This document shows positions 12,001-15,000 of a DNA stretch of 16,503 nt, in pieces. The stretch is from a virus (lineage: Duplodnaviria > Heunggongvirae > Uroviricota > Caudoviricetes), in IMG/VR virus record IMGVR_UViG_2703718806_000013; one strand, given 5' to 3'. The position numbers are program-made. Numbering within the stretch: the stretch's first letter is position 1; each line of letters begins with the position of its first letter.

Positions 12001-15000
12001 GGAGGTTTTATTATGACTTTTATAAAACATAAGGCATCACACAAAACAGCCTGCCTTATTGCACAACACGGGAAAAATCACATGCATATTGCCTGCTTGT
12101 TTCTGCGTAAAGCATACGGGAGATAATAATGCATCAGAAAACAGCAGAACACGAACAAACCAGAGTATTGCTGACCATCAAAAACGGGAAAGTAATATTA
12201 ATTCGTCATGTTCATGACGATGAATTTGTAGGAAATCTTTCAACATTCCTGTTTATTGCAGAAAAGGCAGGATATGACGTTATTGCACCAGCAGATGAAG
12301 ATGAGGAATAAATTTCATGCACTACGCTGAATTCCAGGCTGAAGCAACAGCCAATGGTATACAAACAGGCAGTATGACTATTGATTATCACGACGCCATA
12401 CGCCGTCTGGATGCTGGAGAATTCGATACTCCTAATGTGCGAGGTTTACGTATCCTTCAGTGTCTCGCGCAAGCTGACGAAGCAGGATTACTGGGAAAAC
12501 TTCCGGTTGAGATGAAGGTTGCCCAGTGGCGATGGTTGTATGTGACGACATTCATCAACGAAGAAGAAGACAAGAACGGCACAATTGATGTCCCGAATGA
12601 ACACGGAACAACAGATCGCGCCGTAATATATAACGGGAAGCATGGAGTTATGACTATATACCCTAGTCCCATTCGGTTTGCCTTACAGCAGTATATTGAA
12701 TGGAATTTAATTCAAACATATGGCGAGGCTGAGGGAATGGGAAGAGCGCTGTTTCTTTATCAGAAAATGCTCACCACTTCCCCTGATAAAGGTTTCATTC
12801 TTTCAGATATAGGTCGAGAAGGGCTTGAACTCCTTCTGGATGAAATGATTAACGACCTGAATACTCATGGTATGCCAGAAGGCCAGTGACACATTAAATA
12901 TTAAGAAGAATATAACTCTTCCGTTTTTTACTAACCGTTTATATGAAAAGCGACCGTGAATTAAGCAGAGTAAAACTGCTTTTAATCCTTGCCACAGTAC
13001 TGACACTAACAGAAATCATTATTCTCTTTATTGCGCTGTCTGTCAGTTAAAAATATCGGGATACCACATACCAATGAGACTGTATTTCACAATAGTAATT
13101 TTACTGGCAATTATCGCATGCATTTACGGATTACTCGTTCCGTTCCTTATATCCATGAAGGATACGAGAGCAGTTATTTCTGGCTTTGCACTGGCGTTTC
13201 TGACCCCGCCCTGCATTTATGCCATTTACAAGGGTCTTTCTTTCACTAAGGATAAAAAATGAAAAAAATTATTTTTGCTTTAGCCATTGTTCTGCCGACC
13301 ATTGGTCTTGTCGGTTGCGATCGCGTTGAGCCCGGTAATGTTGGCATCAAAGTAAATAAACTGGGCGACGATAAAGGCGTCGGTGAGGTGGTCGGTGTTG
13401 GTCGCTACTGGACTGGCTGGAATACTGAAGTTTACATCTTCCCCACCTTCAAGCAAATGAAGACCTACGATGAACCGTTCAGCTTTCAGATGAGTGACGG
13501 CACAACCATCGGCTATCACATCGGTGTGGCCTACAAGGTTGATCCATCCAAAGTTACTACAGTGTTTCAAACCTACCGCAAAGGCGTGGATGACATTACC
13601 GACACTGACCTGCGCCAGAAGATAGCCGACGCACTCAACCGACTGGCCAGCAAAATGACCACCGATAAATTTATCGACGGTGGCAAGTCTGAACTGCTGG
13701 ATTCAGCACTTAAAGATATTCAGGCAGAAATGACCCCCATCGGCATTCAGGTAATGAGCCTCTCTTATGTCGGTAAACCGGAATACCCGCCAACCGTGAT
13801 CGACAGCATTAATGCCAAAGTCACAGCGAACCAGAAAACCCTGCAACGCGAACAGGAAGTAAAACAGCGCGAAGCGGAAGCCAACATGTTGCGCGCGGAA
13901 GCAGCCGGACAGGCTGACGCCATTCGCACAAAAGCCCAGGCCGAAGCCGATGCTATTCGTTTACGCGGTGAAGCTCTGCGCCAGAACCCCGGTGTTATGG
14001 AGCTGGAAGCCATCAATAAATGGAACGGCACACTGCCGCAATACATGACCAGCGGTGCCAATACACCATTTATCCAGGTTAAATAACTTATATGCCCGGC
14101 AGGCCGCCGGGCTAAGGGAAAAGCAGATGAACACCCATAATGCCCAACCGCAAATAATGAACTATGACCCGAATCTGACGTCATGCGGACGCATGGCAAA
14201 ACAAACCGTTCGATTAACTTTCGGGTTATGGGAATACCGCGAAACATTCGAAGTTACTGTCGGCGGCAATCTGACCGGACTGGATGTTATCAGTTGCGCT
14301 ATTGAAAGCCTGTACGCAACACTGCCTTATGAAGAAGTCGAGGATGAGCGCACAGGGGGAACAGATATCATGGCCACCATTAATATTGGCGAACTGATAT
14401 GTCAGGATGAAGACCTGTCCGGAGAGAGCTGGCTTGCTGGAATGCTTGTAGCTGCAGAAATTATCAGTATTGAACCCGCTACAAATATACGGCTCTGAAG
14501 TTCTCGCTATTCAGAGAACAGGAGAAAAAATGTTCGATTTGATTAATCAAGGACAACTGTATACCGACAGTGCCGGTTACCCGGTCAAAATTATTCACTG
14601 CATAAATAACATCGTGTTGTACAGAAGAATGGATGGACGAACACAGTCGGTAAAAATAAACGATTTTAATGAACTGTTTGAACGAATCGATCACCAGGAA
14701 TACCGACAAATTCTGGCAGAAACAGAACAAGAAGCTCATCTGAAAAAATTACGTGCCATGAAAAGGAAGTAAAGAATGAATAAAGCGTTTGAGCTATGGG
14801 TACGCCAGCGTTACGGCAATCGCTATGACCTGACGCGAGATGTTGACGGTTTCTACTGCCGTGAAGTTGTGAAACGAATGTTTGACGTGTGGTGCCACTG
14901 CCGTGGATGAAAATTTTATGAGGTTGGCATGCAGACAATCATCTATCAGATAACCCCCAGCAAATGGTGTACGGAGAGAGTCCTCATTGCATCAACAGGG

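Follow-up and report, generated by a model that had tools for sequence, protein, structure and literature searches.

The 16,503-nucleotide (nt) stretch of viral DNA analysed here (Caudoviricetes; IMG/VR record IMGVR_UViG_2703718806_000013; hereafter the window) carries on its plus strand, at 12013-12889, three tightly packed small genes encoding proteins of 37, 60 and 190 amino acids (aa). We found that these genes, referred to below as the micro-ORF (for open reading frame), f60 and p190, are all under purifying selection and are the minimal form, micro-f60-p190, of a mobile and colinear block of early genes. In addition, profile comparisons indicate that the core of the 190-aa protein is remotely homologous to Cnr of satellite phage P4.

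Both our reading of the sequence and a mechanical ORF list place the three ORFs where the initial annotation had described them, with gaps of 2 and 5 nt: the micro-ORF at 12013-12126 (37 aa, ATG start; MTFIKHKASHKTACLIAQHGKNHMHIACLFLRKAYGR), f60 at 12129-12311 (PHROG 340; WP_000553977.1) and p190 at 12317-12889 (PHROG 1515; WP_062855918.1). Each is preceded by its own Shine-Dalgarno sequence, namely AGGAGG at 7 nt, GGGAG at 6 nt and GAGGA at 9 nt from the respective ATG. The 37-aa protein is basic (net charge +7, pI 10.3), while the 60-aa and 190-aa proteins are acidic (-6 and pI 5.0; -13 and pI 4.7). RefSeq lists f60 and p190 as hypothetical proteins and lacks the 37-aa ORF altogether. When the window was compared with phage phiP27, the ratio of nonsynonymous to synonymous change (dN/dS) was 0.12 for the 37-aa, 0.18 for the 60-aa and 0.16 for the 190-aa protein. 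Read from their sequence, the three are real, consecutive and translationally coupled genes. Searches of Pfam, NCBIfam, PADLOC and PDB sequences with the three proteins returned no match, and a literature search on their accessions and PHROG identifiers, and on PF24732, DUF4222 and DUF5375, found nothing functional.

The same 37-codon ORF occupies the same location in phiP27, where 25 of 114 nt differ from the window copy; 11 of the changed codons are synonymous and 8 are replacements, mostly conservative (proportions of synonymous and nonsynonymous differences, pS and pN, 0.60 and 0.13). Across 187 fetched loci we recovered 21 unique nucleotide sequences of the micro-ORF, and frame, length and stop are intact in every one of them; the start codon is GTG rather than ATG in 46 loci. 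Nei-Gojobori estimates range from 0.60 to 0.90 for pS, from 0.13 to 0.29 for pN and from 0.06 to 0.29 for dN/dS. Variable columns fall on first, second and third codon positions in the numbers 20, 8 and 32 (32 of 36 third positions), an asymmetry not found in the two alternative frames, both of which contain stops. Diverged homologues of 35-37 aa share the pattern M(T/V)(F/T).....A(Y/F/H)(K/R/H)(T/S)A(C/Q)......G.....(I/V)A..(Y/F)L(K/R)KAYG(R/K/C) and occur in Klebsiella phage KPP5665-2, Aeromonas phage AsXd-1, Cronobacter phage ENT39118, a Phytobacter prophage and Escherichia phages CharmingMan, Fostie, LMessi, SaltyDalty and Fraca, with 47-54% identity in distant phages. The family is spread over phages of Escherichia, Klebsiella, Salmonella (Fels-1), Cronobacter and Phytobacter, and exact micro-ORF sequences are present on more than 1000 contigs, where some submitters label them 'hypothetical protein'. 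The 37-aa gene is a genuine, strongly selected small protein gene that was missed by the Prokaryotic Genome Annotation Pipeline (PGAP) and RefSeq, and adding it to the annotation would correct hundreds of genome records. Inspected by eye, the protein looks like a two-helix hairpin. Its description as rich in His, Lys and Cys holds for the window copy, which has 5 His, 5 Lys and 2 Cys, and does not extend to the family, in which His is not conserved and, of the Cys residues, a single one is mostly retained. These residues therefore give no support to a metal site.

Upstream of the micro-ORF lies a conserved non-coding leader (11957-12012, plus strand), which contains the near-palindrome ATCGCCGGGGAT at 11969-11980, an inverted repeat GGATTA..TAATCC (6 bp) and the AGGAGG at 12000-12005. 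In the comparison with phiP27, 43 of its 56 nt are identical (77%), as against 40% of the synonymous sites in the adjacent ORF, which differ at 60%. The leader moves together with the micro-ORF into other gene contexts, as in E. coli VL7S7, where the pair is followed by a gp34-like gene and not by f60. We rejected RNA explanations of the leader, since the consensus fold contained no compensatory pairs and hence no covariation, and Rfam gave no match. A consensus promoter scan of 11931-12012 likewise found no promoter-like site, although the conserved leader may hold a non-consensus promoter.

To define the architecture of the module, hidden Markov models (HMMs) of each neighbouring family were scanned over six-frame translations of the 187 loci. 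The block occurs in a long form, with the fixed order micro-(p74)-gp34-f60-ParE_like-gp31-p190, and in a short form, micro-f60-p190; invariably, the micro-ORF opens the block and p190 closes it. The short form is that of the window and of phiP27-type phages (85 loci), and the same gene order is shared by the long-form loci, more than 80 in number, which belong to Klebsiella/Hendrixvirinae-type phages and many E. coli prophages; the module is also found in Cronobacter phages. In Salmonella phage Fels-1 we noted an unannotated micro-ORF (NC_010391 4285-4389; L188 3001-3105) heading the genes STM0898.4n-STM0898.1n. Three genes of 69, 119 and 78 aa follow it, and their matching sizes suggest that Fels-1 probably has the long form too. 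The existence of long and short forms, together with the variable membership, indicates that the trio is a reduced form of a mobile colinear block and not an indivisible three-part machine. The proposal of a small multi-component operon thus survives as a conserved, colinear multi-gene block of coupled real genes, and not as the toxin-antitoxin (TA) set or moron that had been offered as examples. The block is present in 339 of 5426 complete E. coli genomes (~6%), and its carriers include Stx1- and Stx2-converting phages of clinical Shiga toxin-producing E. coli, Salmonella Fels-1 and Klebsiella prophages. Despite this spread in clinically relevant prophages, no member of the block carries an annotation beyond 'hypothetical', and some carry none.

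The geometry of the block also invites the view that the micro-ORF is a coupling or leader ORF only, which would load ribosomes after the 82-nt gap that precedes it, drive translation of the genes that follow, and encode a peptide that is itself functionless. The micro-ORF is always the first ORF after the intergenic gap and has the strongest Shine-Dalgarno sequence; in all variants 2-6 nt separate its end from the start of the following gene, whichever that is (f60, gp34 or p74), and its last codons, GGGAGA, form the Shine-Dalgarno sequence of that gene. A pure coupling device would, however, not constrain the peptide, and the purifying selection along its entire length, seen in the low dN/dS and in the excess of third-position over second-position changes, therefore counts against this explanation, as does the fact that the peptide is still recognisable in distant phages. 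We regard a role in coupling alone as quite improbable.

The 190-aa protein matches PHROG 1515 over its full length (HMM E-value 3.3e-91; 'unknown function'), and an exhaustive HMMER search of 1.84 billion representative sequences returned only 116 relatives. Nearly all of these stand alone, at 160-235 aa, or are shorter and match the profile only in part, and no Pfam domain was found in the seven longer relatives that were scanned. The initial annotation had reported no recognisable motif in this protein. Solved structures gave no match, and the known protein that it does resemble, only remotely, is P4 Cnr. With hhalign, a 44-sequence p190 profile aligned to P4 ORF106 with a probability of 74% and an E-value of 2.9e-5, and a 68-sequence profile with 89.9%, 1.7e-6 and a score of 39.5, compared to a maximum score of 21.8 over 100 composition-matched shuffles. 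The alignment takes Cnr residues 3-106 onto p190 residues 59-190. P4 ORF106 itself belongs to PF17345 (DUF5375; 210.9 bits) and to PHROG 5991, which is also the second HMMER match of the window p190, albeit a weak one (E 0.063), and is matched by P0038, a member of the family encoded in a genomic island (E 0.0012).

Overall, p190 consists of an N-terminal extension (residues 1-64, with an LD.GE.D motif and an invariant D37) and a Cnr-like helical core (residues 65-190). The colinear core shared with Cnr comprises a WRW/YRR helix, helices with the pattern ..E..LA..IEG..I..G.E.G..A, an LS..G....L motif and a C-terminal PV.H. Cnr ends in ..APVLH and the p190 family in the consensus ..P.PV.H, with a near-invariant terminal His; this PV.H end is kept in phiP27 and in ~90% of the family. 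Both are small soluble proteins of early operons without catalytic motifs. They differ in length, p190 having 190 aa against the 106 aa of Cnr; p190 also has an additional N-terminal domain of 64 residues, and its core is interrupted by a beta-sheet insertion of ~25 residues (~residues 88-114). Internal duplication of p190 was rejected, as the N-terminal and C-terminal halves aligned with an hhalign probability of only 0.2%, and P4 ORF151 and epsilon, which we tried as relatives of p190 and f60, proved unrelated. The gp34 family of the long-form phages (PHROG 1737; 119-121 aa; called 'Fels-1 prophage protein' in one source) is a paralogue of p190 residues 67-184 (hhalign 88-93%), and the protein P0072 cross-matches PHROG 1737. 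Although it belongs to the same module, gp34 differs from p190 in lacking the N-terminal domain and is absent from the window. On these comparisons, the best-supported grouping joins p190, as a divergent and enlarged member, with the gp34 family and P4 Cnr (DUF5375, PHROG 5991) in one superfamily.

Genomic position points in the same direction as the profiles. Distant p190 members are encoded in integrative islands with the order int-AlpA-AntA/Ash/Rha-small ORFs-DUF4222-[family]-primase, where the primase is of the Zn_Ribbon_Prim/Toprim_3/DUF927 or the D5_N/DUF5906 type. In two of four contexts the primase gene immediately follows the family member, and in the others it lies a short way downstream; ORF106 is placed likewise in P4. 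A search of the small ORFs in these P4-like islands detected no counterpart of the micro-ORF or f60. We also noted that a DUF4222 gene accompanies the p190 family in the window (14530-14772) and in all four P4-like island contexts examined (L092 3495-3674; L095 5608-5787; L096 6677-6982; L098 4231-4557).

In the window, the trio lies in the leftward early operon, between the cI and xis/int genes. The window matches the chromosome of E. coli UC4224 with 100% identity, in a region that is a Stx1a-converting lambdoid prophage adjoining yecE/yecN. The minus strand of the prophage carries stx1AB, Q, DnaB-like and DnaC-like replication genes, Rha/BRO genes and a cro-like gene; on the plus strand an S24 cI-type repressor gene (10172-10876) is followed by genes for a 226-aa double-helix-turn-helix protein (11053-11733) and a 66-aa protein (11730-11930), then by the trio and, in order, by genes for a 62-aa membrane protein, an SPFH lipoprotein, DUF5406 and DUF4222 proteins, xis and int. 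A promoter-like site, TTGACA-17-TATTGT (10999-11027, plus strand), precedes the double-helix-turn-helix gene, and its -35 element overlaps a 13-mer, CTATAGCGATTGA, at 10990-11002. This 13-mer has only two exact copies in the 16.5 kb, the other being at 10075-10087, between the cro-like and cI genes. The two copies are candidate OR- and OL-type operators. Since the promoter-like -35 element overlaps a sequence repeated between cro-like and cI genes, we infer a repressor-controlled, pL-type operon that would include the trio. A consensus scan of the flanks of the trio found no promoter-like site in 11931-12012 and no plus-strand terminator after 12889. The trio therefore does not have the anatomy of a moron, as had been suggested for it, but sits inside an operon with a promoter-like site at an operator-like 13-mer.

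What the trio might do is best approached through Cnr, which reportedly, in work by Terzano et al. in 1994 and Ziegelin et al. in 1997, binds the alpha primase-helicase and restrains P4 replication. Plasmid copy number of P4 is under the control of cnr, and in 90% of P4-like elements a gene of the cnr family is located between epsilon and alpha (PMC8628076). By analogy, p190 would most likely be non-catalytic and bind a replication initiator or helicase stoichiometrically to modulate it; the protein bound could be one of the host, of the phage or of a co-resident element. The trio would be expressed upon infection or induction from the pL-type early operon of a phiP27-like Stx1a prophage, with no promoter of its own, and the basic 37-aa and acidic 60-aa proteins would be co-expressed small partners or adaptors. 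We consider that p190 acts by binding a replication initiator or helicase to be a real possibility, though one that falls short of probable. Even at this strength, the link of PHROG 1515 and PHROG 1737 to P4 Cnr would provide a first testable functional lead, control of a replication initiator by direct binding, and it is the first functional lead offered for three 'unknown' PHROGs.

Several observations weigh against this proposal. The relation to Cnr is remote, with 18% identity and a single sequence as the Cnr template; a deep Cnr profile was not available because a scan of viral sequences with Cnr gave only near-identical P4 copies. HMMER with PF17345 matched neither the window p190 nor any of 44 family members at E-values up to 10, and comparison of p190 and f60 with solved structures gave no match that would support any mechanism. 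The window p190, with its clade, ends in MPEGQ (12875-12889) in place of P.PV.H, and has I in place of the family E at position 119. ORF106 is presumably cnr, an identification based on its position and on the reported work of Terzano et al. in 1994. The window gene differs from cnr in not lying between a derepression gene and an alpha primase gene, the DnaB/DnaC-like replication genes being on the other arm, and since the window is that of a lambdoid phage without an alpha-type primase, the target of Cnr itself is absent. The phages that carry p190 have differing replication modules, which makes regulation of a phage-specific initiator by p190 unlikely and leaves, as candidate targets, either a replication protein of the host or alpha primases from co-resident satellites. 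Finally, the micro-ORF, f60 and p190 each occur without one another in some loci, and a physical complex of their products is therefore not implied.

A narrower version of the Cnr analogy would make p190 of lambdoid/HK97-like temperate phages a mimic of Cnr in phage-satellite conflict, possibly acting with small partners. In that case it would bind the alpha primase-helicase of resident P4-like satellites or of those of the phage-inducible chromosomal island (PICI) type, and would block or license their replication when the phage is induced. We treat this as speculative and decidedly doubtful; if it were true, the block would be a mobile module of conflict between elements, with the unannotated 37-aa protein as its conserved first component. 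More generally, given the Cnr link, temperate phages and satellites with an alpha primase might engage in cross-talk.

The main rival to a Cnr-like function of p190 is that the trio is generic host-takeover or anti-defence cargo, with three unrelated charged proteins that each inhibit a host or competitor protein and a resemblance to Cnr that has no functional meaning. Lambda Gam, Kil and Ral are small proteins that inhibit host or competitor proteins. The trio occupies the accessory part of the early-left operon, its products are small and strongly charged with orphan folds and no catalytic motif, and it belongs to a mosaic module with optional members, in which the length of the (DE)n tail of the 60-aa protein varies. 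Like the lambda pL accessory genes (kil, cIII, gam, ral and the ea/orf genes), the three genes lie between the immunity region and xis/int, are transcribed in the same direction, and are small, overlapping and presumably dispensable; they differ in that there is no relationship in sequence or fold, and in that the operon of the window has neither recombination genes nor an N-like gene. The order of the block, fixed across distant phages from the micro-ORF at its head to p190 at its end, nevertheless suggests more than independent cargo, and the homology to Cnr is statistically supported. We judge the cargo explanation rather unlikely, and retain modulation of a replication protein by p190 as the preferred account.

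The initial annotation had also raised the idea of a toxin/antitoxin/regulator set, which the searches did not bear out, as none of the three proteins had a toxin, antitoxin or defence match in Pfam, NCBIfam or PADLOC. A recognisable toxin domain is absent from all three and appears only in the long-form relatives, in which f60 is directly followed, with a 29-nt overlap, by a ParE_like gene (PF24732, E 3e-19). This arrangement admits the reading that the trio is a TA remnant, with f60 as an orphan antitoxin of the long-form ParE_like protein that might, for example, neutralise the ParE_like proteins of related resident prophages. The 60-aa protein matches PHROG 340 over its full length (HMM E-value 1.8e-21; 'unknown function') and is predicted to fold into a beta-hairpin and one helix followed by a disordered acidic tail. 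A small acidic protein with a disordered tail beside a very basic ParE_like protein is the usual antitoxin/toxin pattern. The window, however, contains no ParE_like gene, and f60 matches no antitoxin model. Strict co-occurrence of the two genes also fails, since 86 loci have f60 but no ParE_like gene and 3 loci, the isolated phage AsXd-1 among them, have ParE_like but no f60; ParE_like tracks gp31, with which it is always found, and not f60. As the genes of the operon all overlap, the adjacency of f60 and ParE_like is weak evidence, and addiction needs continuous expression, which this operon would not supply if, as its promoter suggests, it is repressed in lysogens.

Comparison with known systems leads to a similar picture. 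Three-component ParE systems (paaR-paaA-parE) were reportedly described in E. coli O157 prophages by Hallez et al. in 2010. The block resembles these and other type II TA modules in consisting of small, tightly overlapping prophage genes and in having relatives with ParE_like after f60. It differs in that the window has no toxin gene, that no autoregulated promoter was found, and that the predicted beta-hairpin and helix of f60 are neither PaaA2-like nor like a ribbon-helix-helix protein, with no antitoxin match. We consider an origin as a TA remnant unlikely.

Within the 60-aa family, the acidic C-terminal tail (window 12290-12311) varies as (DE)n among close relatives, from ADEDEE to ADEDEDEDEDEDEDEDEE, as seen in L040, L044, L047, L059 and others, a pattern that points to slippage at a hexanucleotide repeat. 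One f60 relative carries the label 'DUF905' in UniRef, which Pfam did not confirm. In long-form modules, the 72-aa ParE_like protein and the basic 130-146-aa gp31 (PHROG 1886) are encoded by genes that are always paired and overlap by 4 nt (L003 2874-3520; L100 3688-4295; L104 3688-4343); this pair in a phage early operon may be a toxin-partner or a host shut-off pair.

A second unannotated micro-ORF lies further downstream, at 12943-13050 on the plus strand, between p190 and the gene for the 62-aa membrane protein. It encodes 35 aa with one transmembrane helix (MKSDRELSRVKLLLILATVLTLTEIIILFIALSVS) and is conserved in ~30 related loci with few, mostly conservative substitutions. On the minus strand, a C4 antisense RNA (7496-7583; 83.6 bits) and an isrK Hfq-binding small RNA (7608-7684; 67.3 bits) were detected side by side at the Rfam gathering level. 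The two RNAs lie inside the Rha/BRO-N block of the rightward early region, an arrangement reminiscent of an antirepressor control module of the P1/P7 immI-like or Gifsy isrK type.

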